From: Marsupella aquatica
Lineage: Eukaryota > Plantae > Marchantiophyta
DNA: 64,000 nt
Reading direction: 5' to 3'
Assembly (NCBI GenBank): GCA_973895155.1
Contig: OZ316894.1
Span: 3,310,944 to 3,374,943 of the forward strand
This document shows, piece by piece, positions 6,912 to 37,250 of this stretch (position 1 is its first letter; every line of letters starts with the position of its first letter). Below the pieces are notes generated by a model. The model did no database searches, was not told where the DNA came from, and saw nothing but the letters and a program-made list of their open reading frames with translations. The position numbers were made by a program, and so were the translations under genes.

Positions 6912-6922
6912 CATGCGCAGGC

Positions 6923-7603
6923 ATGGCACGGCCTAAAATTCAAGCCAAAAAGCGTGTGACAGAGGTGAGAAACATAGGTGTACTTGGGGCAGATGCTACT
7001 AACTTCTCTGCAAGTCAGATTTTCCAGAAGGCAGCTCATTGTTGTGCCATTTGTGACGATGGTGGGGGCCTGGTCATTTGTGAGGGCCCTTGCATGAGGC
7101 ATTTCCACCTTAACCCGGAGTCTGACCTTGCTGCAGAAAACAACTGTCCAGGGGTGGGCCTCCCGTCAACACACCAGGTAGACTGGATGTGCACTGATTG
7201 TTTGGAGAAGTAGGCTAAGTGTGCACAGTGTGGGAAGTTGGGGTCCTATGAGGGCTCTGTTGATGCTACAGCAAATGTTAGGAAATGTCCAGACCGTTTT
7301 TGTGTGAGATTTTTCTGTTTTGAGTGTTTGCCTGCTCATGCCACAGCTTGCCCACTTCATAGGTGCAAGGCATGTGGTGAGCATGATGATGACTACTGGA
7401 CTGACATAGTCCACTGTGCTAGGTGTCCCACTATGTGGCACTATCATTGCCTGAAAGATCATCAAGCAGAGGGTTATGCTTGTGACAGAGAAATCTATGA
7501 TCACTCTGCACATGGTGTTGATCGATGGATATTTTATTGTCATCGCCATGCCATTGATCCTACCTCGCGCACTCCTGTGAGAGATCACATATCTTGGCTG
7601 TGA
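6923..7603 (+). pseudogene. Stand-alone EDM2-like multi-PHD finger protein, one in-frame TAG at 7211
   Basis: CAICDDGGGLVICEGPCMRHFH...CTDC..*AKCAQCGKLGS...CPLHRCKAC...CARCPTMWHYHCL...IFYCHRHAIDPTSRTPVRDHI parallels the EDM2 PHD cassette, which ends in TPVRDH. The two ORFs are in frame across the stop. Confidence 0.85.
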
Positions 7604-8195
7604 AGCTGAACATTGTACATGCACAGTGCACCTAATGTGGATGTACTATTTTTTGAGATTGCAGAGATTCCAATTTTGAAAAGGAGTTGGGTAGGCGAGT
7701 TTATATAGGCAGCACTTATCTTGTGCTCTGGCGTCAGTGGCTGGGTACATGCCTATACAAACTTATCCTTACAAGCCTTCTTGGAAGTATTTAGGCTGAG
7801 TGGTCATTTTCATAAACACTTTCATCAGACTGCTAGATTAAAACAGGACTTCTAAGTTGTAAGCGTATAAATTATCAGGCATGCAATTAATCAAATTGCC
7901 CTATAAGTTTGTCATTGAATGTATCCTCCTTTACAACAAAATATGTATGTGCCATGACAAGTTGGTTGCACTTCATTTCACCACGGATATGGATTTTGTA
8001 GTATATATTCAAACAATGTCCTGCATCCGTGCAGGTGCCTAGTACGTGTTGTTCACATATCCCTTGTACCTATCAAAATCGGACCTGAGCACCAGTGGGC
8101 CAGATCAACTCAAAAAGCAGGAATTTTGTTGTCCTTGTATTGTCAGGTGAGCCCATTCTTCCAAAATTCACTATCATCACGTAGGGTGTGTGTAC

Positions 8196-9068
8196 ATGGA
8201 GCCTGGTAAACGTAGAAAGTGTGACCACCCAGCAGTGTTTACAGGGGTCAGAGCGATTTTGGTCCATGGCCAGCATGGGTTGACCAAAGTGCATTGGCCA
8301 ACTGTACAGAAACGATTCTCTGAGCTCCATGGCACTGTAGTTCAGGACATCACTCCAGAGACTACACATGTTGTTGCAGGGACATGGCTATCAGTGATAA
8401 AGAAGTGGTCATGGTCCTACATGAATTCTGCAATTACTAAGCAAGGCCTAAAAGTAGTTGAGGCCTCTTGGATCACAGATTCCATAGCACATAAGATTGT
8501 ACAGGATACTGAGCAATATGAGTTGTGGGAGGATGAAGAAGCTACTGCATCAGCTTGGGCTGAACAAGAAGTCTGGGAAGCAAAGGCACGGCTTGCTGAT
8601 CTCCAATATGGACCTGTACTCAACAAAGGACAGAGCTCTACAAGGCTGAAGAGTATGTTGGCTGAGGAGACGAAGCAACCAACCCCCATTCTGAAAGGGC
8701 TGAGCATGGTATTTGTGGAGGCGGGAATTGGAGAGGTTAAGTGCAAAGTGTACAAGTCCACAATGCTTGACCTAGGTGGGACAGTGGAGGAGAATATAAC
8801 AGAGGACACCACTCATGTCATTACTAAGTCATATCCCAAAGCCTGCCGCAAGTTTGGGAAGGGAGACATTCGCTTTTATGTCATGTCCCATAATGTGTTT
8901 GTGGTTTCATATGCTTGGCTTGTGGAATCAGTAGCAGCTGGGAAGCGTCAAAACCCAATGGACTATGATCTTTTTGAGGCCTGGCCACGGAAGGGTCAGG
9001 ATCCTTACAGAGAGGACAATGAGACAACAAGTGAGGAATGGGTCATTAGCGATTCTGAATCAGAGTGA
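8196..9068 (+). CDS. Tandem BRCT-domain protein (CACTA cargo)
   Basis: Two repeats with BRCT hallmarks: HGTV..DITPETTHVV...VVEASWITDSI and LGGTVEENITEDTTHVI...VVSYAWLVESV. Uninterrupted ORF; ATG at 8196. Confidence 0.85.
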   Translation: MEPGKRRKCDHPAVFTGVRAILVHGQHGLTKVHWPTVQKRFSELHGTVVQDITPETTHVVAGTWLSVIKKWSWSYMNSAITKQGLKVVEASWITDSIAHKIVQDTEQYELWEDEEATASAWAEQEVWEAKARLADLQYGPVLNKGQSSTRLKSMLAEETKQPTPILKGLSMVFVEAGIGEVKCKVYKSTMLDLGGTVEENITEDTTHVITKSYPKACRKFGKGDIRFYVMSHNVFVVSYAWLVESVAAGKRQNPMDYDLFEAWPRKGQDPYREDNETTSEEWVISDSESE

Positions 9069-9501
9069 GGAGTAGTAGCATCAGTTTGGACACAAGTTTT
9101 TTTGTATAAATCAGATCATTGAAATAAATGTGATCTTTGAACTAATGTACCTTGTTATGGTTGGTGGCAGTTGGGCTTATTTTACTGTTGGCGGATTGTT
9201 GTTTCCTACTGCCTGGGGGTGTCACTGTAAACGTACATGCAGAGGCGGTACATTTGAGGACAGCGGAGGAGGTGGTGACACCCTCCAACATTTAGGAATT
9301 TTGTGTCATTCACTTGACAATAGGTACACTACTTGCGAACCTGTTTTTTTCTTTTGGGGTGGTTTAGGGTTTGTGAGAATTTAGTACACGTTATGTTAAC
9401 TCTTTTGGCAGATACAGTCAGGGATATATGGAACACAAATACCACCATTAGGCATCCTTGTTCATTGCTGTCCATGACTGCAGAGCTCCCAGCCTGTTAC
9501 A

Positions 9502-12500
9502 ATGCACCCTGGTCACCACCCTCCCCAGACCCAGCCCAGGGCACAGGCACTGCCTTTGCATCATCCCACAAGGATATCACGCCATGATAATAAGCTTTGG
9601 CAGCGTGAAAGGTTACGAACCAGACTTTCAGGAGCCAGTAGGATGAGATGTCCTTGTGCAATCTACCAAGGATCCCGTACCAGGGGTCTGAATGAGGTTT
9701 GGTGGCATATCGCGGTTCATGGAAGAGATCCACGACATCGAGTTTGGAATGATCCTGTAGAGGAAGATTCTTCCGACGAGGAGTGGAGGTTAGAATTTGA
9801 TGCTGCCAATGCTGCAAGACGGGCAAGTGAGGTTCTGCCTGGTGCATTTGAAAATGTTGTAGCTGGTCTCTGTGGGTTGTCAGCTCTCCAACGGGATGGT
9901 GCTCAGGCAGCACCACGTGACGAAGGAATTCATGTGGAAGAGATGGTGAGAGACATCTTCCAAGACTTGGATGCATTTCATGATGGGCTGGACAATGAAG
10001 AGGATACGGCTGCAGATGCAAGTGTGCCCCCTGTCGAAGAGCCTCTTGATGAGTTTGAGATAGGGCAGGAAACCCCTGGGCATGATGGGATGTTTGGCTC
10101 TCCCCTGCAAATACAGGAAGGCAGGAAGTCTTTGTACCCCGGTAGCAAATGTTCTAAACTGGGATTTGTCATCATGTTCCTGAACATTTGCGGCAACCAC
10201 AATGTCCCCAACGTTTTGGTTTCTGAGTTGTTGGCATTCTTGCGAACAACTGTGCTACTAGATGGTAATATTTTGCCCAAGAACATGTACGAGGCAAAAA
10301 GATGCATATCTAATCTTGGATTGAACTATGATTCGATCCATGCCTGTCCTGATGGGCATGTTCTTTTCAGAAAGGAGTATAAAGAATCGTTGACATGCCC
10401 TAAGTGTGGGAAGCACAGGTATCGGAACTCAGGAAAGTCTATGGTTCCCGCCAAGGTACTTCGTCATTTTCCACTCATTCCCAGATTTCAGCGGATGTTC
10501 AGAAGCCGTGCCATCTCGGAGATGATGACTTGGGCAACTGACAAGAAAAGTGATGATGGGCTACAACGACATGCTGCAGATTCAAGGCAATGGAAACTCA
10601 TAGATGAGATGTATCCCGAATTTGCTGCTGAGCCGAGGAATGTCAGACTTGGGCTGTCATTGGATGGGGTAAACCCATTTGGAGACAAGAACAACAAATT
10701 TTCGTGCTGGCCTGTAACTATTTTGAATTATAACCTTCCTCCTTGGATGACTACAAAGCGATTTTTTGTTCTGATGGTCCTACTGATACCAGGGCCAGAT
10801 AGTGCTGTATCTGCCAACATAGATGTGTTTTTGGCTCCCCTAGTGGAGGAATTGAGAAAGCTTTGGGAGGAAGGAGTTCTCACATATGATGTCCTACAGA
10901 GGCTTGGGAGGTTAAACCCATTCATCCTTAGAGCCATTGTCATTCTGACTATAGCTGACTACCCAGCCCATGGGATGATATCAGGCCAAACAACAAAAGG
11001 ATATTGTGCTTGTACTATCTGTGGGCGCAATGTCACCAGTGAGTACTCCAGAGCCCTGCAGAAAGTGATATACATGGGCCATCATCGTTTTCTGAAGGCA
11101 GATCACCCTTACAGAGAAAGACAAGCACTGATTGCACACTTTGGCAATGAGATTGAGCAACGTGGACCCCCGGCACGAGTGACCAAAGAGGAGATCAGGC
11201 AGTGGGGAGCACTGAGGGATGACTATATCAAACGAGGGGGCAGGGAAGATGGAGTGAGTGATCCAATAAAGCGATATGGTGTAAAAAGACTGAGCATATT
11301 GGACTTGGAGCTCAAGTACTGGAGGGTAAGCCTCTTGGAGTTGATGCTAATTGGGATACATGTTTTGGTTCAGAGCATGTGCATTCATTTCGAAGAGAGA
11401 GACTAAACTTGAGGCATTTCCTGACGCTTTTGCATTGCAACAATGCAGGAGTTTGAGCCAAGCAAACATAACATTGATGTTATGCACATTGAAAAGAATA
11501 TTTGTGAGAGTCTACTCAGATTCTTGTGTGGAGAGAAAGACACTGGTTCAGTGAGATTGGATCTTGAACAGAGGGGAATGAAACCCCATCTTTGGTTGAG
11601 GCCACATGCCCACAGAGCTGATGTGCTCTTGAAGTACCAAGCGCCCTATGTTCTGACAGACACAGAGTGGGAACTATTTGTGCAGAGGTTGAGTTCTTTG
11701 AAGGTTCCTTCAAACTATGGCAGTGCTTTCAAGAAGCATATCATGACTAGAAAGCTTGGTAGTATGAAAAGCCATGACTACCATATGTTGATGCAACAGG
11801 TGTTGCCTTTATGCCTGAGGGGCCTGTTGCAGAAGCCTGTTCATACTGTGATCATGCGACTCAGTGATGTGTTTCGGTCGTATTTGTGTGAAGGTTTGGG
11901 ATGAAACACACTTCCCACAACTGACAGAAGATGTCGCTCAGGTGCTGTGTGACCTGGAGATTTATTTTCCTCCCGCATTTTTTGATGTCATGACCCACCT
12001 ACTTGTCCATGTTGTGGAAGAGGTACACCAATTTGGGCCTGTGAGTGCTCGTTGGTTGTACCCTTTGGAACGGTACATGAAGCTACTCAAAGGTCACGTG
12101 AGAACATATTACAAACCTGAAGCAAGCATGGCTAAAGGTTACATCAAGGATGAGACTCTGGGATTTCTGACCGAATACATAGCACAATATGAGCATGTGA
12201 AGACCAGGGTGTGGAATTCTGATGAGGAAGAAGGGGTGATAGGTGAAGTACTGGAAGGGGCTGCAACCACAAAGAACCTGACCATATCTATGAGAGACTT
12301 GGCACATGACTTTGTATTGCACAACACTGTGGTGATGGAACCCTGGATACAGTGAGTGCATACATGTGCTATAATCCAGTTCATGAGCTTAAATGTTGTG
12401 TTCGTGTGGTTTTCTCCTTCAGCCTGTTCATGTTTACCCAAGCTAATGCTGTGTGGTTGTTCGTTCAGGGAGTATGAGTCATTGAAGGCGGCCCATCCCA

Positions 12501-13227
12501 CTGCAGGAACAACTTTTCCAGGTTTCATGGAGTGGATCAGAGTGGCAATTAGAGAGCATCACGAGACCCACCCAGACATGGATGCAGATGTTTACCTACT
12601 GTCTAATGCCCCAAAGTGAAGACTTACAAACAAATGAGAGCATATGGGAATCACTTCCGAGTGAAGGATGGTGACAGTGCCTACAGGGTGACGAATGACT
12701 GCGGGCTCATCACTGTATTTGAGCAATAGAGCCACAATCACGACAGGGCCTGGATGGAGATGGGATATGTGGGAGAATTAGTTGACATATGGGCTCTGGA
12801 CTATGGGGCGGTGTCCAGTCCTGTGATTCTTATGAAAGGTTCATGGGTGCGGCAGGATTGGCTTGGTAACAGGGCTACCATGAAGAGAGACAACGACGGT
12901 TTCTTGCTGGCCAATTTCAGAGGGAAATTGCCTGAATGGTCTGAGCCATTTATGTTTCCTAGTCAGGTGGAGCAAGCTTTCTTCCTGGATGTGGAAGACT
13001 CCCCAGGTTGGCGTGTAGTGTGTCATAAACAGGCCAGGCAACGTCGGATGGAAGGATCAAACCTTGAGTTTCATTTACACTCTCATAGTGCCTTTGATCG
13101 TCGGCGTTCAGACCAAGTGCCTGTAGTTCATGATAGCGGGGACTTCATTCCTGTGACAAGGGTAGATGCATTTGCTGAAGGAGGCGAATTCAGAGATGCA
13201 GATGCCAACAGTGTGCCTGTGCCATGA
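9502..13227 (+). pseudogene. CACTA TnpD transposase (Transposase_21 + DUF4218/DUF4216-type regions), spliced, defective
   Basis: Motifs IHACPDG, LRHFPLIPRFQR, RNVRLGLSLDGVNPF, NLPPW, DYPA, DVMHIEKN, MKSHDYH, FPPAFFDVMTHL, YPLERYM. GT-AG intron 11326-11448; frameshift near 11880; stops near 12617 and 12727. Confidence 0.93.
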
Positions 13228-13382
13228 GTAATGTGAATTGTTTGCATGGACATTAGTGAGGGGAAGGATGTGTAATAAAGTAATTCTGAAGCAACATAGA
13301 TGTATGGATGGATGCCTGGTGATTGTGGTTGCATTGTGTTATACGGGGTGACCATAGATGACATGTTTTTATGGTCCAGTAG

Positions 13383-16300
13383 GATGGAACAGAGTGACAC
13401 AGAGATGTGTGAGTATGAAAGGAAAGCTATGGAACAACGAGCATACGTGAAAGCCAAAATCGCAGAACTGGATCTGGAAAAGGATGTGGCTGAATTGTAA
13501 GGGAACGATTCTCAACTACACCCCTCCGCTGAGTTTGTGTGACATGAATAGTTCAATGTGGCACTAAAATTGTGACTGTATTCTCATATTGGAATGTCGC
13601 AGAGCCACAGCATTTTCAAAGAAACAAAAGGAGTACGCAAGAAGGGTGACCAACACTATCTCTGGGCCTGTGCGTCGGAGTGACAGGTTGAGCAAGAAGG
13701 TCGTACCTACAATGGCAGAATGTGGAGATGACATTGATGCTGCACAGGTGGGTGCAGACACTAGACAAGAAGATGCAGATGATGAGTATTTTCCAGAGGA
13801 AATGGATGAGGATGGGGGTTATGAAGATGAATACATTGCAGAGCAGCCCCAAAAGAAACATGTAAGTAGTTTTCCCAACAAGGTTTTGAGTTAAAAACTC
13901 TTGTTTAGAGGTTTCATATGTTCAGTACTACACATATGTACCTTGCTTAGTTCCTGACATTGTAGTTGGTGATGTGATGCAGCGTCCTGCCAGTTCTGTT
14001 TTGCCTTCGAAGCCTGTGCATGCACCATACCAGCAGGGGGGCTGACCTCTGATCAAGGTTGGCGAGGTGGTAGTAGTGGTAGATCCCAGGCTGGTGCCCA
14101 ATACTATGGCAGGGGGCAAGCTCTAGGTTATGCCCGTGGTAGAGGCAGAGCAGGTCCAAACCCACAATCTCGTGGGTATGGACGTCCACCTCAACCATGG
14201 GGATGTGAGTATATATCTATATGCCAGTTCTTTGTGAAGGCATGGCACTCCTGAATTTCAGACTGCATATCAATTTTTGACATTGTTTGGGATGTATTGG
14301 ATTCAGACAACATGAAATTCTGTCCACCTGCCATTGCATGCAGATTCTGCCCAACCTGATTGGGCAAATGCTAGTAATGATCAGTTCCAATGTCCACAAG
14401 GACAGACATGGGTTGAACCAGGTTGGGAGGATGGTGGTGGGTCGTGGAATGAACAAGGTTGGGAAGGTGGTGAAGGTAATTGGCAGGGATATCAAAATTC
14501 AGTACCTACAAACTCTGGAAGAGGAGCAGGTAATGTCTGATCTTGTCAGCAATGGAAGAACTCATTATATGTGGAGTCCATTCACGTGGGGGGGACTCTG
14601 CACATGTATAATGATAGAAAATGTATGTGTGCAGGTTGGACAGTCGAACCATCGACTCAAGTATTCACTAATGCCCCTATGCAGATGCAGCACGGAAGGG
14701 GGACAGGTATGTCGGTGAATGTTCAGTTGTTTTCCTACAGTTTGTACTTAGTTTTCAGTACATATGTTTGCACACACATACCTAGAAAGTGACATCATCC
14801 GGCCCCTGTACTAGGCTGGACAGGTGGTCCAGGGTCGCAACAATTTCAGAGTGCAGTCCCTGCACAGGCATCTACAGGCAGAGCTACAGGTATGTATGTT
14901 TGAAGAATTTTTCTTGAAGTGAAGCATTGAATGTTGCCGTCATCCATTCTGCTATATGTAGTTCTCAAGCATGAATGGCATTGTATTTTCCCAGGTGGCT
15001 TCAGAACCCCAGGTAGGGTGAATGAAGGGGTGGCCAATACAACGCCCAGTACTACCGAGAGCAGTGCACGAGGGGAGGTGACAAAGAAAGGGAACGTAAA
15101 GTTGAATGAGAGACAATGGGTGGATGCTGAGTGTCCTCGCAAGAACCGATGGCATGCTGATTTGAAAGCTGAAGTATTGCGTTGGTTAGATGTGAGTGTT
15201 ATTAATTTTAAAAAACAGCATCCAAAAGATTGGAAGACTGTATGTGAAAATGTTGCTGCCAAATGGAATTATGTGGGCAGTGATGATGGCGTGGACATAG
15301 GTTGCCTAGAGAGTACAACAGGTAAAATTATCAAGCAAGAGAGGTGGAGAATGCATAAGGCTTGGAAGGAAGGTGGGGAGAAGCCAGATATGCCTCCACC
15401 AGCCAGTTGTGATGATAAAGTGTGGGCAAGGTTAGTAGCTTATTTTGTAACAGATGCTTCAAAAAAGAAGAGTTCACAGATGACCGAGGCCAGGTTGAGT
15501 GTTTAGAACCCTAATCTGACAGGAAGGACCGGCACTACACCGACAGCTAAACGTTTCATAAGAATGAATGGCCTAGCTATGTAATTTATGCTACACTATG
15601 TACTATTTTTTAGTGTAAACCCATACATGTAAACTTTGTTTTTTAGTGTACGTTCCCTGAATATTGATCGATAACTTGTGTTTGCCATGCATGTGCAGAA
15701 AGCCCAATTGGGGCAAAGCCCTTCAAAAGAAGAGTTGAGGGCTGAAATTGTGAACACCCGGGCTCAAGAGGGTGCATCTGAATCCTCCAAGCATGTAAGT
15801 TATATGAGTTCTGATTGGTAATTGAATGACCTGCGTTGAATTTCAGGTGTACACTGTATATAACATTGATTGTGCATATATTGCCCAACATTTCATATGG
15901 AGTGATTGAACCTATACCCCTGTGTCATGTAGGGAGGTGGATCTTCACTTACAGAGATAAGTGGTCGTTTGAAGGCTGTCGAAACATGTCTTCCAGAGAT
16001 CAATGAACGTTTGAATTCATTAACTGACTTGTTCCATGTGAACTTCAAGACATTAATGGAAGCTGTTGTGTCGGTGAGAGATAAAATTGATTCCAATTCT
16101 GCAGGAGTTCCACCATCACCACTTGAGGTGGCAAAGTCGATGCACTCTTCTGGCATGCCAACGACATGTAGGCTTGAAGGTAAGGCCTTTACAACTATGT
16201 GGGATATGATTATTAAATGTATAGTTTGAATTGACATTGTTTGTTGAATGTGTTATTTTCAGTAACATATATTGTGGTTGTTGTGTCCATAGAGAATAAG

Positions 16301-17090
16301 ATAGGTGCTACAGAGAAGAAGTATGAGAACCTGGCAAATACTCGCTGTAATTTAGAGGCAACAAAGTTGCAGTCTGTACAAGCAACTTGTTTGACAGAGG
16401 GCAGTCAACCATGTTTGGATGAGGATGACATTGGCAAGGGAGTGGATGATATCAATGTTGGGGCAAATGAGGATATCAGCAAGCATGACAATGATACCAT
16501 TGAGCCAGATTCATGCTATGTAGATCTTGACTCCATTGCAGAGATAAATGATTTGCAGAATGTATCATTCTCAATGACAGGTGTGCCTCTTGTTGAGATA
16601 AATCCAACCAAAGAGTTAGTTGGTATGACACTCCCAGGTGATGAACCTGCTACTGTGACAGTCCTAACAGAGGAACCTACTGAGCCTAGCTTCACTACTA
16701 TGAAGAGAGGAAGCATGCGCACACGAAGCAAGTCTGCTGGTGGGAGCAGAGCCACGTCAAAGGTTTCATACAAACCTCCAAGAACAGTGCTGGCAGAAAG
16801 ATCTAAGGTGAAAGTGGGGAAAGCACCTAATGCTGAGGGACAAAGTGGCTTGTTAGCTGTTGATGAGAGTGGAAACACGAGTAGGATTTGCCAGAGTGCA
16901 GGTTGGTTCCACAACGTTCCATGGCAAGAGGATTCCCCCAGGTTATTCAGTAGTGTTAGTCACATTACTAGTGAAACCTAAAGCTGTCCTTCCCATTCCA
17001 AACACAAATGATGATCCTCCTCAAAAGACACTTGGAGATGCTGCAGGTTCTTTGGTATTATGGCCAAGCAAGTTCATAGAGGATCCATAA
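13383..17090 (+). pseudogene. CACTA TnpA-like multi-exon gene with an RGG/GW-rich N-terminal part
   Basis: Exon 14995-15506 (...WARLVAYF...KKKSSQMTEAR...TGRTG) and the C-terminal exon (...FHGKRIPPGYSVVLV...LPIP...TLGDAAGSLVLWP) resemble the Ptta/En/Spm and Tnp1-like domains. Several GT-AG short exons; in-frame stops. Confidence 0.7.
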
Positions 17091-25400: not shown

Positions 25401-26074
25401 GGAATGCCCCTTCTCCGACAATAGTTATCCTTGTGCTTATTGAAGACCAAGTGTTTGGTCTTAAAATTACTAAAGCAATTGGAGATGGATTTAGGGTTCT
25501 GAGAGTTGTCTGCATTGCCATAAGTTTCCCTACATTCAAGACACTCCAGATGCCCTCGAACATCTGTCCCCTCATCCCAGGTACAAATTCTCCAATTGTG
25601 ATCACCATAACCCTTCTTATGTACCCATTTCTCTAACCTCATCCACTCATCTTTCCATAGCTTTGATGGGACATCTCCCATCAATTGTGACTCAAAAGAA
25701 GCCCTTACAGGGGAGGGTGCTGGTGCTGTTGGCCCCAGTTGTGGTGTCCCAGTATTCATACCCAATGATGCAGGAGTGCAAGGATGACAGGGTACTGGTG
25801 GGATCCTCCCACCATCTCCAAGTTCTTGTTGTACAACAATAACTCTTCCATCCAGCTCAGACAAATCAATTAATTTCTCATGTACAGGTTTCACTCGACC
25901 AGGAAGTCTCTCATCCCAAAAATCAACGTCAAAGTCTAGAGTAGAGCCAATCCGAGCCCTAAAATCATGTACGGTGTGTCCTTCTTTGAATGACAAAACA
26001 CAAATTGGTAAATCAGCCTTGTCATCCCCAACTTTGCGTATTAATTTAATAGAGTTGGGTTTAGGTGCTGCCAT
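19449..26074 (-). pseudogene. P-element-like DDE transposase with two N-terminal C2H2-like Zn fingers and an AT-hook; disrupted
   Basis: Motifs FAEDET-RIK..PRW...D..IGFCG, HASDG, QDQPHNGKK..N, DRQNW, GTQLYL, FFLRLWRLW, LDCCEIFFS; N-terminal CLEC..H..H, CSVC..H..H and KRGRPKR. Intron ~21852-21954. The frame is restored (WKGISYDI) when the nested CACTA is removed; frameshifts and stops remain. Confidence 0.7.
22815..24852. mobile_element. Non-autonomous CACTA (2.04 kb) inserted in the P-like transposase gene
   Basis: CACTAGTACA...TGTACTAGTG termini; TSD ATA (22812-22814, 24853-24855); 21-bp subterminal repeats (agaatgggaaagtccgatgct) inverted between the two ends; vestigial TnpD peptide LKYEVIQTCKNDCILF at ~24260-24315. 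Confidence 0.93.
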
Positions 26075-27004
26075 TGCAATACAAATCTAGAACATGCATT
26101 GCACCATTGCTTTTGGAGTCGATAACAAAAAGACCTGCACAAATACATTTGAAATACACACAATGCAAACACATTAGGATCTTCAAGAGATGCAATGACA
26201 ACATACACATTCTCATGTAATACACATATTGTCAACATACATTTAACAATAGAAGTGCTAATAGGGCAAAACACTTTATAATGCAATTCATACAAGCAAA
26301 TGTATTCAGTGAAAATCATGATATACCGTTAAAGTTGGATAAAATATCTTTGGACAAAATATCCTTTTCGCCTGGTTTTCTAACAATTCCCGAGGTTTAG
26401 TGCTTCTGCTCATCAAAATGCAGCACTATTAGTGACAGTAATTATGACAAAATGTCAACACTAATAAAATTGGGTACTATCACCCATGATGTAGCTTAAG
26501 TATTTGCCTTGCTCATACCCCACTAAGACGTTAAACCTACGTAATAGGTTTGTTCATTATTCAGATCACTGGAGCCATGAAATGTGGTCCCTGATTGGAG
26601 TCTTCAGGTGTGGATCAATAGGATGACGGGGGCAATAAAACATCTGTCGCTGTTGTCCATGTGCTTCATGTTCCCAGATGTCCCTATCATGAGCAAACCC
26701 TTTGCTTTTGATCATCTGGAGACAATCTGTATGCCAGGCATTTGGACATCGTAGACATTGTACCATGTTCTTGACCATCTGACCCTCAAGACTCTGATAA
26801 CATGTCACACATGTATGCAGTGGGCAGGACTTTGCATCAGCTACCAAACACCCAAAGCAATAAAATCGTACACAAAAACGATCAGAGCATTTTCGCACAA
26901 TTGTAGGTGATGGTCCCACAGTGCGGCACCCATAACACATGGCCTGGTCCTGGTTACAATTTGGGCAAAACCATGGCTTCCCTCCATGATGGAGGGGAAG
27001 GACT

Positions 27005-27612
27005 TGTCGTGCGCATACATATCGCTACACAACATACATCGCTTGTCACATACATCCAGACATAGTCACACTGCCACATCACAAACACAAAAGAATGGAA
27101 TACAAGTGGAACTCATGTCCACACATGTCCAAAACCCACAATAATCTCAATACAATCGGCACAACGATCCCGGTCAACAATACCCCATCGATCCCTCACC
27201 GATCCGATTACACACGTATGTCAAGCCAACGCACCTTGCACTACTCAAGGAATCCACGTTACACAAGCGGAGCTCACAGCTACCATAGCCACACTCAAGC
27301 TCCTCTCTCTCCAAGGCTCAACATTGAAAGATGACCTTTCAATGCCTCACAAGTGAGAAGTACCCTCTCACACAAACCTGACGGAACCTTATCGGCTCCA
27401 ATAGCACTCATACCAAACATACATACTCTAATAGCACGATATACTACTACACTACTCAGAATGGCGTGACAGCTGTCGTGCGCATACATATCGCTACACA
27501 ACATACATCGCTTGTCACATACATCCACACATCTAGTCACACTACCACATCACAAACACAAGAGAATGGAATACAAGTGGAACTCATGTCCACACATGTC
27601 CAAAACCCACAA
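27005..27612. repeat. Terminal repeat block A1 (27005-27141), B1 (27142-27471), gc, A2 (27474-27612)
   Basis: A1 is near-identical to A2; B1 is near-identical to B2 (36159-36488); palindrome GACAGCTGTC at 27468-27477. Confidence 0.92.
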
Positions 27613-27613
27613 T

Positions 27614-27622
27614 CGCCCCCCT
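27614..27622 (-). promoter_or_regulatory. Putative short polypurine tract (AGGGGGGCG on the minus strand)
   Basis: G-run immediately 5' of repeat A2 on the coding strand. Confidence 0.5.
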
Positions 27623-27786
27623 AGCTGGGAGTAAGGTCCCCTAACTCTAGCTAGCCATGAGTTCTACAAGGTTGATATACACCTTTTTAGGTGTGAAGAT
27701 CAGGAGGCCGGGTGCAAGTGAGCCCCATCGATCACCTACCTGCAATCCATATCTGCCAAGAGAACACAAATGATAACTAGTCGGCT

Positions 27787-27930
27787 TCATCGACACTGAG
27801 GACACAACCATGATCCACTAGGAATCACCTGCAATGGTGGTGTCAAACATGACATGTGCCATCCTCTAGAACACTTATCACAAATCAACATAGTAGCTGC
27901 TCCTTGAGCAGATCCACACAACATACATTT
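27787..27930 (-). CDS. C-terminal PHD finger of the Gypsy polyprotein
   Basis: Canonical C4HC3: CMLC...LICDKCSRGWHMSCLTPPL..IPSGSWLCPQC; in frame with the integrase. Confidence 0.9.
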   Translation of the reverse strand, partial: KCMLCGSAQGAATMLICDKCSRGWHMSCLTPPLQVIPSGSWLCPQCR

Positions 27931-28109
27931 CAAGCCAGCACGAACATGTGCCAAGCTTGGATCTACTATACCATCAATGTTGGGAAGGTGACATGGTGCA
28001 CAGTTGCGCACATGATCCTTCCAAACCATACCATCGCGTCCCTCCAACATCAGAACACCAAAAGGCAACACTTCACGCACACGTAAGATTTTCCGGCCTG
28101 CGGTCACAT

Positions 28110-29060
28110 CAAGTGTCGTGGGTGTTGTCTACTGCAAATAAATATAATCACCAGGATGAAATCGCCGAATGCTTGCACGATAACCTCCTCCACGAATAGT
28201 GGCATACCTCAAAGTAGCACGATGTTGGGCAATGGTAAGGTTGTCGAAAGCCATGGGCATCACTCTCTAAAATACCCGTGCTCTCTCTAAACACACCTTG
28301 ACCCAAACATCAGGATCATCCAAGTTCACAACTGATGCAACATCACGATGAATAGCTGCTGGCAAATCTGGCTCTCTACCATAGAGCAAAAAGTAAGGTG
28401 AGAAGGATGCAAGTGATGCTTGCCGACTGAAACGGTAGCCCATAGCTAACCAAGGTAGCTGGAGATCCCAATCTCCCAGATGACCAACCTGCAAGCCATA
28501 CTTACGCAATCCTTTCTTCACAGTTTGCACAACTCTCTTAGCTAATCCATCTGCCTCAGGATGATCACGAGAGGTAGTACGATGATCAATCAGAGCTTGT
28601 TCACACAAACTCTCAAACTCTCCACGGAACTCAGTTCCCTGATCAGTCAACACCTCAGCTGGTGCTCTAAAATGACTGAGTACACGATCCAAAAATGTAG
28701 CAACAACTCCTCCACTGGCTTTATCTGGCAACGCCACTAGCTCAATCCACTTGGAGAAGTGCTCCACCATGACCAAAACATACCGATTATGACGTTGGGT
28801 AAGAGGTAATGGACCAGCAAAATCCAAACTCCAATGATATCCCAAACCCATGATCGGCAACGGGTGCAACTGGGGAGTGGGAGCATTAAACGATGCTCTC
28901 ACTCTATCACATACCACACACTTAGCTATCAACTGCTGGACATGAGTGTGCATACCACGCCACCAATACTGTGTCTACAGCAAGCTGTAAGTGCGCTTTA
29001 CACCAAAGTGACCCAACTCCTCGTGCGCATGTCGCACCAAATGTACTCTTTGTGATGGTT
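28110..29060 (-). pseudogene. Integrase (HHCC zinc finger + rve core)
   Basis: HEELGHFG...CVVC, WSLDFAGPLP, LTDQGTEF, DGLAKR (catalytic E appears mutated to K); in-frame TAG stops. Confidence 0.92.
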
Positions 29061-29399
29061 TGGGGACCACCAACACTCTACCATCATGCAGTACTCTCAA
29101 AAGATGGTTTCCCTCCCATCGAAACCTCTTGGCTCTCTGTAGAACCCTATCACGTTCCTTGGCATCAACACTGCCAACAATAGAACCACTGCGCAGATAT
29201 TCCAACACTTTCACATCATTGTGAATATCTTGCTGTCCAGTAGTTACCTCACTAACATCCACATCTGAAGACTCATCATCCACTCCATCCAATGAGGTAG
29301 AGTCCACAGATCCACTGTATGCTGGCACCCAACAAAGAAAGGCAGATGCATGCCATCCTAGCACCATCTCCTTATCTGACTCATCATGCCATCTGGCTC

Positions 29400-30900
29400 C
29401 AGTCTCATCTTGCTGACTGGTACATGGATTGCGGCTTAATCCATCTGCATCCAAGTTCACTTTTCCAAGCCTATGCACCACCTGGAAATCATACTCCTGT
29501 AACAACAATGCCCATCGTGCAAGCTTCCTTGTAAGCTTGTCAGACTCCATTAACCACTTAAGAGGCTGATGATCAGTGATCAAGGTGAAGGGGTTACCAA
29601 ACAAGTAGCAACGAAAGTGTGCAACAGCCCACACTGCTGCCAAACACTCTCCCTCATAAGAGCTATACTTAGCCTCTGCTGAATTGTTTGATCTACTGGC
29701 ATAAGCCACAACAAACTCATTCCCCTCATCATCCTTCTGAGTCAGCACTGCTCTAAGTCCTACTCCACTCCAATCAGTGTGTAGCTGAAATGGTCTGCCT
29801 GAAATGGGTCTTCTCAAAATAGGGGATGATGCCAACCTTTGCTTCAACTCCTGAAAGGCATGCTCCTGGTCATCACCCCAAATCCATTCCTGATCCAACT
29901 TAGTGAGTATGGTCAAAGGTTTAGCAAGCTGGCTAAATCCTTTAACATACCTCCTGTAGTAGCTCGCCAATCCCAAGAATGCACGAACTCTGCTCACATT
30001 AGTAGGACAAGGAATCTGTGTAATGGCCTCCACTTTAGTCTGCTGTACACCCAATCCCCCTAGGTATATAGTGTGGCCCAAATACTCAATCTGGTCTTGG
30101 AAGAACTTACACTTGCCAGGATGGAGCTTCAACCTATGTGCTCTCAATCTCTCCAACACAATCTGCAAGTGCTGCTAATGTTCTTCCACAGTAGAAGAAT
30201 AGACCAAAATATCATCAACATAACATCTGACAAAATCCAAACCTGCAAGGATTTGATCCATGACTCTCTGGAACTCAGCTGGTGCATTCTTCAACCCAAA
30301 TGGTAAGAATAACCACTGATACAAACGATCTTTGCCATAAGAATCAATCCCCCAGAATGTTGTCTTGGACCTGTCAGCATGCCTAATTGGAAGCTGATGG
30401 TACCCTGCCCTCAGATCCAATGAACTGAAAACCTTTGCATGCCCCACAGCATCAAAGATCTCCTCAGGTGTGGGCATGGCATATCGATCAGATTTTGTCT
30501 GGCGATTAATAGGTCTGTAATCACCACACATGCGCCTATCTGTGTAATTGCCATGCACATCCTTCTTGGCTGGCATCACTGTGGCAGATGCATACTCCCC
30601 ATATGAAATCTCCACCAATCCAGCCTCCAACAAATCTTGAGTTCTGCTTTGAATCAGAGCTCTCTCCATGTCACTATAACGGTATGGTCTACGAAAGATT
30701 GGCGCATCACTAGCCAATTCAATCTGAATACCAGGACCCTTCAGTGTCCCCAAATCCTTCATGCTGAATGCAAAACAATTCCAATAACTCTTCAGGAATC
30801 GATGCATGCGACGTCTCTCCTCCCCTGTTAACTTAGGGCCAAACTGTGGTTCCCAACTTTCCACCAAATCCCTAATATCTCTTTGTAGGGTAGAAGAGAT
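29400..30900 (-). pseudogene. Reverse transcriptase and RNase H
   Basis: RMCGDYRPIN, LDLRAGYHQL, LPFGLKNAP, YVDDILV, LHTDWS, YASR, YEGECLA, TDHQPL, ADGLSR. Confidence 0.95.
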
Positions 30901-31089
30901 AGCCAATGATTGCTGTTTAGCAGTAGATTGAGTAGTCCCTTCCTGCTCAACAATCTGTCCAGCCTTGGCCAATCCTGCCATAGGTCCATGGACTGTCTGC
31001 TCGCCCCCAGCTGTGGTCAATACTGTCTCAGTGGACCGCAAGCTCACCAAGGGACAATCAGTAATTCCAGTAGAGCGCATCCGCAACTA

Positions 31090-32070
31090 TTCAGCTACTC
31101 CCAAGCTGATAATCCAAGTCAAACAATTCAGGTCCATTGCTTGACCAAGAACCTGGCGCCGCAAACCCTCTGACACAGAGGCAACTGCAGTGGTGCCAGT
31201 CAAAAATCCCATAGCACGCTATCTCTCATCAGCAGTAGGCTCCACTAACTGCTGGAGAGCTGTGTCCCACACAAGTCCAGGGCCACCTGCTCTGAATGCA
31301 TATGAAGCAGAGTGGCTTACAAGAGTGGGTAATGCACAACGTGGGCGCCCAGCTGCATTGACCATTGCCAATGGAGGTCTATCAGGTTGGGTCACACCCT
31401 ATGCCCGACGCCCTGGATCCAAACTATCATCCACCACTAAGGCTGGTGAGCGTGGAATGTTGTCAAATGCGCGCTTCAGCACCTCACATGGGATCAAATT
31501 AGTCCACCATAAGCATGGACGATGTGCACGAAAATCCACACGTGCAGCATCCAATAACACAGTAGGTCCAATCCAAGACCTCACCTGGTGAACACTGGCA
31601 ACAATCTGACTACGATCATCACCTAACAATGGCACATTCTCCAAAATGTATGTTGGAGATTGTGTCTGATGTAGCTGGAGATGACGCAGTACCCGTAACA
31701 TCTCCCAAAACAATGCAGAGCGTGGATCATGAAGTCCATGCCCAATGCCAGCTCTAGATTGGCCCTGACATGGCCAACCAGGAATCACCAAATCAATGGG
31801 GCCAACACGATGTAGATGATCCGCCCCCAACAATGAAATATCAGCAGGTAGTGCATGCTGATAACCACGAACAGCATCCACTGGCAGCAACTGTGGATAT
31901 CTATCCACCAACATAGCCACATGTCGCAATGAGACCCTCCGTGCTGTCTCATCTGTCTCCACATACAAATAACGACGCATAGGAATTCCTGGCTGAAGAA
32001 CAGCAGCCAATCCAGTGCTAATCCCACCAAAAAGATCCAACAAACAAATACCCTCCGGTGGATATTGCCA
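31090..32070 (-). pseudogene. C5 DNA cytosine methyltransferase domain within the Gypsy polyprotein
   Basis: Motif I LLDLFGGISTG, II YVETD, IV GWPCQG, VI ILENV, VIII AHRP.LWWTN, IX ER*RAMGF, X LGQAM; located between protease and RT, in frame. Confidence 0.9.
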
Positions 32071-32562
32071 AGCAATAGGAGTGGTATGCAATGGTGAAAG
32101 AGTCACAGGTCCATTTGCAAGAGACTGCTCTGCTCCTGACTGTGGTGTAAAAGCATGACGCCATGCATCATGTACCAATCGTGCTGCGGCCTGTAGCAAG
32201 GCTTGTGTAGTGCCCCACACTGGTGGCACAACACTGCCAACAGGTAATCCTCGCATGATGTGCTCCTCATGAGACTCCTCCAATGGTGGAACATCGGCTG
32301 CATGCGCATTACCCTCAATCAAATCATCAGGTCCAGCAATTACACCACTGAATGCTGCCAAAGACAATGGTGTGGATTTAGGGCCTCCCACAGGTCCACT
32401 AAATCTCACTGGCAATTTGCTCAATCGAGCATCTCCTGACTGCCAATCAGGTCTATATGACACTGATTCCTCCCAAAAATCAAGAATAAATCCCATGGGG
32501 TAGAGCACTGTACATCCCACCAACACATCATATGACTCTGCCTTAGTCAGAATAGCTCGCGC

Positions 32563-33222
32563 CTATATCTGTGAGCTATCTGTGGTATGACCTTCCTGAA
32601 TCCTCAAATCAAGTGCTCTCCTGGTGATATGCTGTGTAGGTGTAGGTCCCCCCAATGAAGTCTGAATGGGAAAGGGACAATCCTCCAAATCCTCTGGACG
32701 CAATCTCAATCCATGTATGGCAGACTTCCCCAACATCAAGGGCTGAGCACCAGTATCCAGTAACACTCTCTCTGGCTGGTATACTGCTCTAGAAGGCCCA
32801 ACTAATCGAAAGATACCACTCCGATTATCCAATGACACAACACTAGGTTTAAACCTAGTCCTCTCAAATGCAGGGCGTGTTGGTAAATCCACCAACCTCG
32901 CTGCTGCTGCATGCCATGTCTCACTAGTAGCAGTAGGTGGTATGGTCTTTACTGCTTCAACACTGCAAGCTGCTTCTGCATGGGAAGCAACAACTGGAGT
33001 GTCCTCACAGAGTGTAGCTGCCAATCTGAACACTTCTGCAGGACCAACTCCCAAGTTCAGCATGTCTGTCGCTGAAAATAATGGGGTGCGTACTATGGCA
33101 GTAGCCACCCCCAGCAGGGTACCTGTCATCCCTACTGTATCACTACCGGATTCTGCCAACTTACCCACGCCAGGGTTTGTCCGAACCGGGTTCATAGAGG
33201 CAGTCTGAACTGTCTCTGACAA
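32563..33222 (-). pseudogene. Aspartic protease region of the polyprotein
   Basis: VLLDTGAQPLMLG active-site motif. Confidence 0.85.
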
Positions 33223-33231
33223 TGCAAAAGA

Positions 33232-34905
33232 CTAAGGAAGCTTTGTCTGCCGACGTGCATCTCCCCTCTGTGGATCTAGCTCCACTACTGCTCCTCGGGG
33301 CTCAAGAGCTTTGGCTGCCCCACGTGTCAAAGCTGCTGATGCATCAATATGTGCAGTGCCACACATGAATCCCATGGTGGCAAGATCTCCATCAACTCCA
33401 TAAGATGTGGAAGGACCATGGGATGTGGAAGGTCCATAGGATGTAGATGCCCCATCACCAGAAGTAGGTCTCACCTGGGAACTAGCCATGGCAGCTAGCT
33501 GTTGCTCCAATTGAGAAATCTTAGCATCCTTTGGATCTATGGTTACAGTAGGGGCAGCGTCACCTCCCTGTCTCCCTGCATGTGGCATGCCACGACCACG
33601 TCCACCACCTCTACCTCCTCCTTCTCTTCCCTGATCATGTGTACGGGATCCTCCCCTCCGTAACTCAGGGTGGAGTGAGAAACACCTATCCTTGGTGTGT
33701 CCAGGAGCTCCACAATGATCACACTGTCGCTGATCAGGTGCTGATGCTCCCCCTGATCCTCTATGATCTGGACAATATCTTTGTGCATGATCCCCACCAC
33801 AGGTCCAACATCTTGACTGTTGTCCAGCATAAGAGGGCATAGGTCTCTGGCTGGTAGACTCTCGTGCAGTAGGCTTCTCCCTCTGGCTCTTCCGTGCAGT
33901 AGACTGTGGTGTGGATGTAGATGCAGCCTTTGGTGCTTCCTTGGCAAATCCAGAAGTCACCACCTTCTCATTCACCATATTGAGCTCAATGCGCTCAGAA
34001 AGGGTGAAAACAACTGCTAATGTGGGATCTACATCCCTAAGCAGAGTGACATCTCTCACTCTGTGTCGCAATTCTCTGTCCAGAATTGCATACCAAAACT
34101 GGACTGCCTGAGCCTCTGTCACTCCCTTGGTGACAGTGATCAATCTGCGCATACGTGTGTATGCCTAACGTAGGCTCTCTCCAATCTTGCGTTAGAACTC
34201 CTGAAGACCCTTCAACTTATCAGTTCTCACACTCTGATAGTTCTGCTTCAGTACCTCAAAGAATTCCACCACAAGATTAAATGCTGGCGCAACTCCAGTT
34301 CCTATCACAATCACACCGGCAGGAGTAGTGGTGGATGCTGCTGGAGTACTGCTGGTGGATGGTATGCCACTCTGGCTAGTGCTGCTAGAAGAGGCAACAG
34401 CTGTGGCAATGGGTTGGGCAGCCGCACTAGTGCCATAGGTGATGGACACGTAATTAGGTGACCAATGCTGCCTCCATGCCTCAATCTCAACCAAATGAGC
34501 CTTCCGAAACTCATAGTAGTCATCCATGGGTGGCCCCTCCAAATGCTGAAATAATCTCTTCCATGCCATGAAAGGGTTAAACAACGTGGCGTTACGCAAT
34601 GTCTGCATATCGCACCACGTATCAAACTCCTGGATGAAGTCATCCAGATCAGTTGTGCCAACTGCACCAGAGTATCATCGTGGGCCCTTTGTAGCCCCGT
34701 ACATCTCGTCCATATCCCACAACAAAGGTGCAACCACCTGATGATGAGGAGAACTGGTCACTGAGTCCTCATCAAAATCACTGTCTGAAGCTGCACTGCT
34801 GACTGCTACCAATGCCGCTGGCCGAAACTGTGCCCCACTCCGAGTGAAACCGGTCCATCGTTCATCGGGTAATCCAGCAGCACCAGAAGAATCCGTGGTG
34901 ACCAA
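33232..34905 (-). pseudogene. Gag with two zinc knuckles
   Basis: CWTCGGDHAQRYC and CDHCGAPGHTKDRC followed by an RGG-rich stretch; same frame as pol; in-frame stops. Confidence 0.8.
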
Positions 34906-36147
34906 CGCTAACCTAATCTATGTGCTAACCCTAAGGGCAATCTATCCCTGTTAGCACCACAAGCACTCACCATGGTGTGTTGGGCATCACTCCAACATCA
35001 CCAGGAGAGAAATACATAACACAACTAGAATGTCCGGTTGCAAACCCGGATCACTCCTATAGAATCAAGCGCCCACGCCAAACTAACATGGCGCATAACA
35101 GGAAGCATGTGTGGAGAGGATCCAACAACAAGAAGAGGATTTACCACAACTCTCCACACCAATCAATCAGAAATACATGTAAATAATGTGCATATAGTTC
35201 AATGTAGGGCCTTCATAATAGGCTTCAAGAATCCCGCGTCAATTATTCAAGAATCCATCGCAAACTAGCTAAAACAAAGTATCTAGATGAATTCAAAAGT
35301 GCATAAAACCCCTAGGGCCTCATTCCTTGGACATCAAATGTGGAAGGAAGCATGTACAATGTACCACATAGAAACTTGCTAGTTAAGCGCATGAGAGGAG
35401 GAATAGCTTTGGGATGGGTGACCTCTCACTTGTCATTATGCACCAAATCTGCCACTCCAAAATGGCAGCACTTGCAAGTACTCCTCACGTCCAGCAAGCT
35501 GGCTTGCTGACCCGCCCGCTCTGCCCTCACGCCCCTCGTCCCGAGTAACCACGAGTTGCCTCGAAGCCTCGAAACGCCGAGATGAGCCAAAGAGTGAGCC
35601 CTTCACGCCCGCTACGCCAAATCGAGTTTCGGCAACATTCAGATTTCCGTCTCTCAGTTTCCCTTCACAGAACGACGTACAGTCGAGAGTTGCGGATCAG
35701 CTACGAGCAGTCGGCGCCCTGTCGATCGGATCCGCAAGTTGCAGCAACTTCGCGCGGATTGGCCCTTCCACATAACCGCGCGGAGCATCGGCAGATCGCC
35801 GCTTCACTTGCGCCTTATCACAGTAGTCAAAAATCAGATCTGAAGCCTCGTGGATGACTTCCACTGTCCGACGATCTGCCAACATTCGCGGAATGCTTTC
35901 CTCCACGAAAACCAACATTCAAACTCGGCTACAACAGCAGCGTTATGTGCCCAGATCCGGTGACACAATGAGCAATCTTCAATGATCTGTGATCTCTTTC
36001 CTCAAAATAGCATTCGCCAACACAAACTGCAGCAGATTGAAGGACTAACAATCTACTCAATGAGATCCGAGATACCACGGATCCACGCAACAGATTGAAA
36101 CGATTTCCACAAACCGTCACCAACTCAATCAATCCGATTCGCATCTG

Positions 36148-36159
36148 ATCTTTCAATGT
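36148..36159 (-). promoter_or_regulatory. Putative self-priming primer-binding site
   Basis: The 12 nt flanking the inner edge of B2 (plus strand atctttcaatgt) are the exact reverse complement of 36338-36349 (acattgaaagat) inside B2; no TGG-type tRNA PBS is visible. Confidence 0.55.
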
Positions 36160-36488
36160 AATCTCAATACAATCGGCACAACGATCCCGGTCAACAATAC
36201 CCCATCGATCCCGCACCGATCCGATCACACACGTATGTCAAGCCAACGCACCTTGCACTACTCAAGGAATCCACGTTACACAAGCGGAGCTCACAGCCAC
36301 CATAGCCACACTCAAGCTCCTCTCTCTCCAAGGCTCAACATTGAAAGATGACCTTTCAATGCCTCACAAGTGAGAAGTACCCTCTCACACAAACCTGACG
36401 GAACCTTATCGGTTCCAATAGCACTCATACCAAACGTACATACTCTAATAGCACGATATACTACTACACTACTCAGAATGGTGTGATA
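36159..36488. repeat. Terminal repeat B2 (5' end of the element on the coding strand)
   Basis: About 98% identical to 27142-27471 (about 7 differences seen); not preceded by repeat A. Confidence 0.92.
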
Positions 36489-37250
36489 GACTGCACAGGG
36501 GCAAGAGTCATTAGGGGCTTTATCTCCAACCACATAATGAAATTGCCTGTGACATGGCCCATCACAAATTACCAACTTCCCACCATGCTCACAAATTGCA
36601 CAAACATGAGGGCTGGTTTGTAGAATCTCTTGCTCAAAGAACAAGGGAATACGCAATACCTCTTCTAAAGAGGCTCCTCTGTCAGAGGACGGTGTTGCTT
36701 TCTTTATGTTTGAAGTCCTTGTCGGCATGGTTACAACTGAAATCATCACAAAGCACATCACATATGAGAGGGACATGTATGATAGTGGGCAATCCATAGA
36801 CAAAGATAAGGTTAATCATAGCACTTGGAGAAATCCACATTTCAAGTAGTTACAAACCTGCTCCAATGATCTGCAATCCTCCCTCCCAAATGAAGTCAAC
36901 TACACAGTGCAGCCTGGACACCCACCAACCAAGACATACATAAATACAATGCCAGCTTGCGAAACTTTGCCACATAATGGGAATGAAAATTATTCTCATA
37001 TATCATGGATGGTACAATTGCAGCCTTGCAAACAAAGGCCTAGTCATCCTGCTAGTCATATATGAACAACGCATCCATGTACTATCAGGGACTACAATGT
37101 CAAGCATCCATGGGCTGTAACCTTAGCTTGATCTGGAATATTATCTGGGGCTACAATATCAAGCTCAGTTATATGTGGAATAGTATCTGGGACTACAATG
37201 TCAAGCGTGTCCGGGATGACAATCTTGCGTAAAAGACACTCATTTTGAGG

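Follow-up and report, generated by a model that had tools for sequence, protein, structure and literature searches.

An EDM2-type PHD cassette carried by a CACTA and a P-superfamily transposon in Marsupella aquatica

Two transposons and their PHD cassettes

The window analyzed here, a 64,000-nucleotide stretch of contig OZ316894.1 from Marsupella aquatica, contains a non-coding foldback element of ~1.4 kb (302..40629, no strand assigned; segments 302-546, 17949-18853, and 40371-40629), which was the insertion target of two autonomous elements, one CACTA and one P-like. The CACTA element (547..17945, plus strand) has the TIR CACTAGAAGAA and a 3-bp TSD, CGG (544-546 and 17946-17948); its assignment to the CACTA/EnSpm class follows from CACTA...TAGTG termini, the 3-bp TSD, and a Tnp2 transposase, all of which are present. 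Domain searches revealed Transposase_21 (E 8e-70), DUF4218, DUF4216, and a weak Transposase_24 match, and located the transposase (TnpD) reading frames at 9478..13227 (+). Upstream of these lies copy 1 of a PHD cassette (6923..7603, +), an intronless frame of 226 codons with an N-terminal ARxK motif. Between the cassette and the transposase is a second accessory gene, encoding a twin-BRCT protein (8196..9068, +; BRCT E 2e-13 over two stretches). A Cys/His-rich ORF upstream of the cassette (5703..6152, +) matched neither a known family nor the cassette profile.

The P-superfamily element (18854..40370, minus strand) has TIRs of the form CTC(A/G)GGG(G)TCTCACT and an 8-bp TSD, TTCAGTTT (18846-18853 and 40371-40378), a TSD length that is not unique to P elements. 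The inverted repeat at 302/40629 was considered as its TIR and was rejected once the 8-bp TSD was found at 18846/40371. The element measures ~10 kb when nested insertions are subtracted. Stops and frameshifts disrupt its transposase (19449..26074, -), as does an inserted MITE (22811..24851, no strand assigned) that carries 24-bp subterminal repeats; the MITE-free joint, 22810 to 24852, occurs in three of four public runs. A carotenoid-oxygenase fragment is also found inside the element, and the cassette profile did not match the ORF at 37251-37490. For the P-like transposase, searches of Pfam and of PDB sequences returned no significant match; the predicted structure of its core was poor (pLDDT 45), and fold searches were uninformative. 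A complete relative, L002, has termini of the same type and a perfect 8-bp TSD. Its transposase matches P/THAP9 clusters at 0.92-0.94 and has candidate D(2)H residues D728, D847, D894xxH897, and E1089, in an order agreeing with the P-type DDE motif (PMC3698922). No THAP domain was matched in the intact ORFs of L002 or a further relative, L003, where unassigned Cys/His motifs are present. No similarity was detectable between the CACTA and P-like transposases.

Copy 2 of the cassette lies inside the P-like element and is split into a 5' part (36489..36728, -; 80 codons, including one TSD copy) and a 3' part (26566..27000, -; 144 codons and a stop). The intervening sequence is a 9.5-kb Gypsy retrotransposon (27005..36488, -) with a 4-bp TSD and an A...B-A-B repeat layout; it encodes a protease, C5-DNA methylase, RT, RNase H, integrase, and PHD, with several in-frame stops. 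With the Gypsy removed, the copy 2 frame is open over 224 codons. The boundaries of both host elements are TSD-flanked and enclose their cassettes. An initial annotation of this DNA had described two cassettes with shared motifs, each upstream of its transposase and in the same orientation as it; the coordinates, motifs, orientation, and location were all confirmed. It had also described each copy as encoding a protein of ~220 amino acids. Neither copy does so as it stands, given the Gypsy in copy 2 and, in copy 1, an in-frame TAG (7211-7213, codon 97) that had gone unmentioned. Contigs from public runs have CAG at this codon; position 7211 is C in nearly all depth in three of four runs, and in most depth in the fourth, in which the call depends on the end of a single contig. 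The empty Gypsy site (joint 27000 to 36489) is likewise present in three of the four. Because the run contigs show CAG and an empty site, the families carry open cassettes, and the stop of copy 1 and the split of copy 2 look private to these copies. A splice-acceptor-like AG directly precedes the start codon in both, so upstream exons are possible.

Ancestry and selection of the cassette

The cassette contains 2.5 atypical PHD fingers of the EDM2 type. Its EDM2-type identity, proposed earlier, was borne out by sequence matches (E 1e-25 to EDM2 and 1e-8 to NSD2). Together with EDM2 and EDM2-like proteins it has these fingers and a closing YC..H.ID...TP.RDH segment, at ~30% identity. EDM2, however, is a protein of ~1300 amino acids with an RFD and a methyltransferase-like domain, whereas the cassette has ~220 and lacks both: the ORF stops directly after the PHD module with no RFD match, and the methyltransferase-like domain is absent. 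No DNA-binding family was detected in the cassette protein by domain search. The NSD1-3 PHD cluster shares Pfam families PF23011, PF22908, and PF23004 with the cassette, and the NSD PHD-C5HCH is a structural match, but NSD proteins are far weaker sequence matches. When a tree was built with host EDM2-like and NSD PHDs, all 16 stand-alone proteins formed one long-stemmed clade among the EDM2-like proteins (support 100/99) and NSD fell outside the plant group. Within this clade, location inside a transposon is shown only for the CACTA and P-like families of the window; the remaining 14 of its 16 rows are proteins without DNA context. A quick tree placed liverwort C-terminal-PHD paralogues as the neighbor of the clade (support 88); a careful tree did not reproduce this, so no donor is claimed. 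A topology joining the CACTA-type subgroup with liverwort paralogues was rejected (p-AU 2e-5). Several CACTA-type relatives, 52-81% identical, are full length, and several database relatives appear frameshifted or truncated. A metagenome scan with the cassette alignment gave 53 pattern matches and no relatives.

Relative to EDM2, the cassette has a His-to-Cys ligand swap, a deletion of ~18 residues, and conserved family-specific residues that EDM2 lacks, and the acidic stretch before finger 1 is gone; finger 1 keeps the host residues at its Gly-Gly-x-Leu, Cys-Asp-Gly, and Trp positions. By these sequence criteria the cassette is a remodelled module and not a plain EDM2 copy, and the H3K9me2 specificity of EDM2 is therefore not simply transferable to it.

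The two copies were also compared directly. Their coding alignment scored 104 against a shuffle maximum of 39 (n=200), while the similarity of the 500-nt flanks did not exceed shuffles. The proteins are 49% identical over 186 codons. Synonymous sites are saturated, with pS 0.747 and identity at 9 of 33 four-fold sites; pN is 0.334, and the dN/dS ratio does not exceed ~0.3 (bootstrap upper limit 0.32). The initial annotation had held that the zinc ligands are kept despite divergence of the DNA; this applies to 29 of the 38 core Cys/His of copy 1, which are identical in copy 2. Across 12 stand-alone rows and 26 host-conserved Cys/His columns, Cys or His is retained in 296 of 312 cells. The outcome named as damaging to the proposal, dN/dS near 1 with ligand loss, was not found, and purifying selection is supported. 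A second such outcome, a separate small mobile unit inserted into both elements, is ruled against by the absence of shared flanks and of a flanking TIR and TSD pair, sought around both copies. Collectively, an accessory gene under selection, of single origin and present in two superfamilies, is well supported. The exchange between superfamilies proposed earlier is supported as far as one origin in two unrelated superfamilies. Since the complete element L002 contains a transposase and no cassette, the cassette is an optional gene for P-like elements. It was found in 0 of 35 P-like loci, few of which reach far enough upstream to show one.

Candidate role of the cassette protein

The N-terminus of histone H3 (residues 1-9) was the reference motif for a comparison of cassette tails. 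Upstream of finger 1, [AST]RxK occurs in 15 of 18 stand-alone N-termini and in 2 of 107 host stretches. The summed H3 likeness of the N-termini was 302 against a shuffle maximum of 232 (n=2000), for rows that share ancestry. Most cassettes have a basic, apparently H3-like tail where EDM2 has its acidic stretch, and net charge changes from -4.2 in the host acidic stretch to -0.06 in stand-alone cassettes. Copy 2 has no ARxK tail, some clade members have [AST]RxK several residues after the first Met, and an M[AST]RxK start is seen in 3 of 142 host-side proteins as well; alternatively, the motif could reflect start-codon context combined with a nuclear localization signal. The lost acidic stretch and apparent H3-like tail in 15 of 18 members are newly described here, and the loss may have changed or abolished H3 binding. 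The predicted cassette model (mean pLDDT 74, with residues 1-26 below 50) resembled H3-binding PZP and NSD PHD-C5HCH structures at E 1e-4 to 1e-2 with low whole-chain TM; a search of PDB sequences gave no structure close to an EDM2-type reader cassette.

H3K9me2 is among the marks bound by the PHD fingers of EDM2 (PMC7472560). The reading we favor, tentatively and at a little short of even likelihood, is that the cassette is a selected accessory gene derived from one EDM2-like host gene and encodes a probable histone-tail reader or decoy that blunts silencing. Under this proposal an EDM2-like gene was likely captured once, trimmed to the 2.5-finger module, and transferred at least once between the CACTA and P superfamilies. 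The protein is predicted to bind H3 tails on chromatin and, without the RFD and methyltransferase-like domains, to compete with host heterochromatin readers. In most members the ARxK tail would mimic H3, and would either close the protein's own first finger or absorb host H3K4/K9 readers. Silencing would then be blunted without any DNA target sequence, and we propose that the module could move across unrelated elements because no DNA-binding domain has to co-evolve with element sequence. A bolder version, in which bryophyte DNA transposons exchange a portable anti-silencing module combining an H3-tail mimic and a chromatin-binding, EDM2-derived reader as a decoy for H3K4/H3K9 readers and writers, seems rather unlikely. 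In that version the module would be the equivalent of VANC without its sequence dependence, and would bring the histone mimicry of viruses to transposons. EDM2 itself acts both ways on transposons, silencing and activating (PMC3632883), so any cassette effect could have either sign.

An unlikely alternative is that the CACTA and the P-like element each picked up, in separate captures, a gene of a stand-alone host family of this lineage, with the selection between the two copies acting mainly in the host and the transposons carrying the gene as cargo. It would fit the 14 clade rows lacking DNA context, the existence of short EDM2-PHD host genes such as Marchantia Mp4g03050 (280 aa), and the carotenoid-oxygenase fragment, evidence that the P-like element does take up genes. 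Those short or C-terminal host paralogues that have names nevertheless fall outside the stand-alone clade, none of its 16 members was traced to an annotated genome on look-up, and other copies of both families have an uninterrupted frame, with several diverged CACTA-type proteins full length.

It is also distinctly unlikely that the protein is a recruiter instead of a decoy, bringing ASI1-AIPP1 to the heterochromatic transcripts of its element to yield full-length transposase mRNA. The cassette lies upstream of each transposase in the same orientation, and EDM2, ASI1, and AIPP1 favor distal polyadenylation over heterochromatin (PMC7472560, PMC7529245, and PMC10241880). Against this, the cassette lacks every other EDM2 domain, the AIPP1-binding part of EDM2 was not located in the literature examined, and nothing would limit the action to the cassette's own element.

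Chromodomains and PHDs on some integrases tether them to marked chromatin, and the cassette might similarly be an adaptor that directs integration. Both elements landed in one small foldback repeat and the predicted fold is like that of histone-reading modules, but the adaptor would have to bind two transposases without detectable similarity, and L002 moved without a cassette; a single window does not allow target bias to be assessed. We regard this as improbable. So, too, we doubt that the selected protein serves some other role, as in self-repression of the element or as a scaffold no longer reading histones: family-specific residues foreign to EDM2 and the missing acidic stretch would suit such a role, but the host-type positions of finger 1 are retained. 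A neutral captured fragment or small independent mobile unit, suggested by two broken window copies and by defective-looking database relatives, is very improbable and already largely refuted by ligands conserved while synonymous sites are saturated, by the lack of own termini, and by lesions missing from other copies.

Relation to known systems and significance

Pack-CACTA and Pack-MULE elements are TIR elements that hold host-derived gene fragments. The cassette differs from these: its ORF is complete, its start and stop are conserved, it is under long-term purifying selection, and it resides in elements with a transposase gene of their own. VANC of the Mu-like VANDAL elements is, like the cassette, an optional accessory gene beside a transposase. 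It is similar to the host chromatin regulator MAIN, its probable origin, and so offers a precedent for a host-derived transposon factor (PMC13547354). The action of VANC depends on particular sequence motifs, and PMC5735166 and PMC13547354 describe it as specific to dicot MuDR elements, whereas the cassette has no detected DNA-binding domain and occurs in two superfamilies, with a putative anti-silencing role. KnitGypsy-Dnmt3 and SymbioDIRS-Dnmt3 likewise represent a transposon-acquired host chromatin gene under purifying selection (PMC5890265), but these are enzymes fused in a retroelement Pol, and the cassette is free-standing, non-catalytic, and found in cut-and-paste elements. A literature search, with subscription journals, Repbase, and supplements outside its scope, found no report of a transposon-encoded EDM2-type PHD gene.

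If the favored reading is true, accessory genes pass between transposon superfamilies, here CACTA and P, and there would be a second, portable anti-silencing route beside the sequence-specific VANC of one Mu-like lineage. The cassette is a minimal natural form of the EDM2 reader, and at 220 amino acids its direct expression in Marchantia or Arabidopsis is feasible, making transposon escape from H3K9me2 silencing testable.

Two transposons that carry the cassette

Plant transposons are nested within one another in the window, and two of them, both located within one small foldback element, carry the EDM2-type PHD cassette. A CACTA element (547–17945, + strand), whose termini match and which is flanked by a CGG duplication, contains cassette copy 1 (6923–7603, +) together with Tnp2 frames, a Cys/His-rich ORF (5703–6152, +) within a module at 5543–6300, and an intronless twin-BRCT ORF (8196–9068, +), which is a further candidate for an accessory gene acting on chromatin or in repair. 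Contigs end loose at 5543 and 6300, the edges of the module, so it may be present in other elements too. A P-like element (18854–40370, − strand), whose termini read CTC(A/G)GGG and whose target duplication is 8 bp long, holds cassette copy 2 (36489–36728 + 26566–27000, −), a broken transposase and a broken carotenoid-oxygenase fragment of the RPE65 family (38112–38750, +). It is interrupted by a MITE (22811–24851) and a Gypsy element (27005–36488, −). A small Cys-rich ORF upstream of its cassette (37251–37490, −) gave no match in a Pfam search. The terminal sequences of the P-like element recur in short non-autonomous derivatives at 40692–41000 and 53739–53910. The Gypsy element has a 4-bp TSD and encodes a DDE integrase, a C5-DNA methylase domain and a PHD finger; its repeat order A...B-A-B (A ~330 bp, 98% alike; B ~140 bp, 96% alike) is known from DIRS elements, and the DNMT-bearing Gypsy of the same study comes from a charophyte alga (PMC5890265). 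Outside these elements are an intronless enoyl-CoA hydratase-family ORF (47928–48908, +; hydrophobic N-terminus, CpG not depleted, o/e 0.88), a Rab-GAP TBC gene in a single open frame of 796 codons (57757–60147, −), and tandem repeat arrays at 50477–50917 (~85 bp) and 61918–63064 (45–130 bp units).

The initial annotation held that the two carriers belong to unrelated superfamilies, and this stands. A relative outside the window (L002:192–6287) is a P-superfamily element in complete form; it has a single 1520-codon frame that is intact, a 16-bp perfect TIR, a perfect 8-bp duplication and termini of the same kind as those of the window element. Its candidate catalytic residues, predicted from sequence, occur in the order D, D, D(2)H, E, that of P transposases (PMC3698922). 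In an atlas search its transposase matched P/THAP9 clusters at 0.92–0.94, ranking under one unnamed cluster at 0.95. Named relatives of the P-like transposase occur in Riccia and Adiantum, which makes a bryophyte the likely source of the window. Pfam and PDB sequence searches gave nothing significant, the structure model was too poor for use, and the L002-type clade is covered by no Pfam family. No similarity was found between the CACTA and P-like transposases (probability 0.3%).

Identity and origin of the cassette

The best matches among longer proteins were EDM2-like (E 1e-25 to 1e-23), followed by NSD2 (E 1e-8). A predicted structure (mean pLDDT 74) matched PZP and NSD PHD-C5HCH structures; TM-scores over the whole chain were low (0.2–0.3). 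The top atlas match was a streptophyte NSD-type PHD cluster (0.93). Five full-length stand-alone relatives (217–245 aa) were found among 117 candidates, and further ones among the best 150 of 689 profile matches, several of which look truncated or frameshifted. All 16 stand-alone proteins looked up are unnamed or "hypothetical" records (Logan, JGI, ENA), known as proteins alone.

From 169 extracted regions, leaving out the long row P0155 and very partial or redundant rows, trees were built with 62 rows (quick) and 53 rows (careful). In the careful tree, which includes host EDM2 and NSD PHDs, a single branch (100/99, stem 1.04) sets all 16 stand-alone rows apart inside the plant/algal EDM2-like group, which is itself separated from NSD and other distant outgroups (96/92). 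The stand-alone rows have in common a derived Cys at one ligand (12/12; the 24/24 hosts that have a residue at this place have His). They also lack ~18 residues and stop right behind the module. Copies 1 and 2 fall in different subgroups of this clade; grouping of the CACTA-type subgroup with liverwort paralogues, the sole alternative compared, was rejected (p-AU 2e-5). Short EDM2-PHD-only proteins also occur outside the clade (P0039, P0044, P0045, P0052, P0078, P0130 and P0053, including Marchantia Mp4g03050); three of these have a MARxK start, possibly a convergent form.

The cassette did not behave as a small mobile unit of its own: within ~1.2–1.6 kb searched around either copy, no inverted-repeat pair with a duplication was found (~0.6 in shuffles), and the flanks of the two copies have nothing in common. 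None of 35 P-like loci had a cassette, six of these matching the transposase N-terminus with 0.2–7.8 kb upstream and L002 alone being shown to be complete; the cassette is optional. Splice-acceptor-like sites directly precede both cassette start codons, and upstream exons are possible.

Selection and the state of the two copies

Over 186 aligned core codons, the copies are 61/72/41% identical at codon positions 1/2/3 (pS 0.747, pN 0.334). The upper 97.5% bound of dN/dS is 0.32, with about half of the bootstraps saturated, and the comparison spans the transposon phase and any host-ancestor phase alike. Across 12 stand-alone rows that are full length or nearly so (32–91% identical, median 42%), Cys/His is retained in 296/312 cells at 26 host-conserved columns, and 12 of the 16 exceptions are in one single column. 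Neutral decay, with dN/dS near 1 and random loss of zinc ligands, was not what was found.

Both copies in the window are damaged: copy 1 has a TAG at codon 97 and the reading frame of copy 2 is split. Contigs of four of 11 public runs (X1, X2, X5, X6), one of which may be the window's own source, were compared with the window. Position 7211 is C in 6584/6584 (X1), 301095/302843 (X2) and 197/197 (X5) depth units, and in 3128/4200 for X6, resting on one contig end. Copy 1 shows three further differences from the run majority, of which two change an amino acid; this fits decay of copy 1 alone. In X1, X2 and X5, but not in X6, there is a joint that omits exactly the Gypsy element and one duplication.

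Possible roles of the encoded protein

Besides its 2.5 PHD fingers, EDM2 has a methyltransferase-like domain; it binds H3K9me2 and acts in concert with ASI1 and AIPP1 on polyadenylation across heterochromatin (PMC7529245, PMC7472560, PMC10241880); its effect on TE silencing depends on the locus (PMC3632883). RFD was found in angiosperm EDM2 matches.

The N-terminus also differs between hosts and the stand-alone family. The acidic stretch before finger 1 in hosts, where 12 residues have a net charge of −4.2 on average (n=123), is missing from the stand-alone proteins (−0.06, n=18), for which 18 of 22 candidate N-termini were usable. An [AST]RxK motif occurs in 15/18 of these, immediately behind a Met in 10/18, versus 2/107 host stretches; it is present in copy 1 and absent in copy 2. 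The H3(1–9) motif is the reference for tail likeness, and the summed likeness of the stand-alone tails, whose rows are related, was 302 (shuffle mean 179, maximum 232). The motif is possibly a start-codon context, and the same M[AST]RxK-type start is found in 3/142 host-side proteins; a localisation signal is also possible.

The cassette protein may recruit the ASI1-AIPP1-EDM2 complex, may target integration, or may have another role; a host gene family may also have been captured twice. As a predicted reader without effector domains, its simplest action would be competition with the readers of the host, and a protein needing no DNA site would be portable; we hold this competition reading tentatively, at a little under even chances. 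In the literature accessible outside supplements, subscription journals and repeat databases, no report of a TE-encoded EDM2-type PHD gene was found, and PMC11982613 gave nothing relevant. Chromatin factors carried by TEs are already known; examples are VANC (PMC5735166; PMC13547354) and the Dnmt3 that some Gypsy and DIRS elements encode (PMC5890265). Judged from sequence, the EDM2-type cassette is quite probably an accessory gene that selection maintains in TEs for one function or another.
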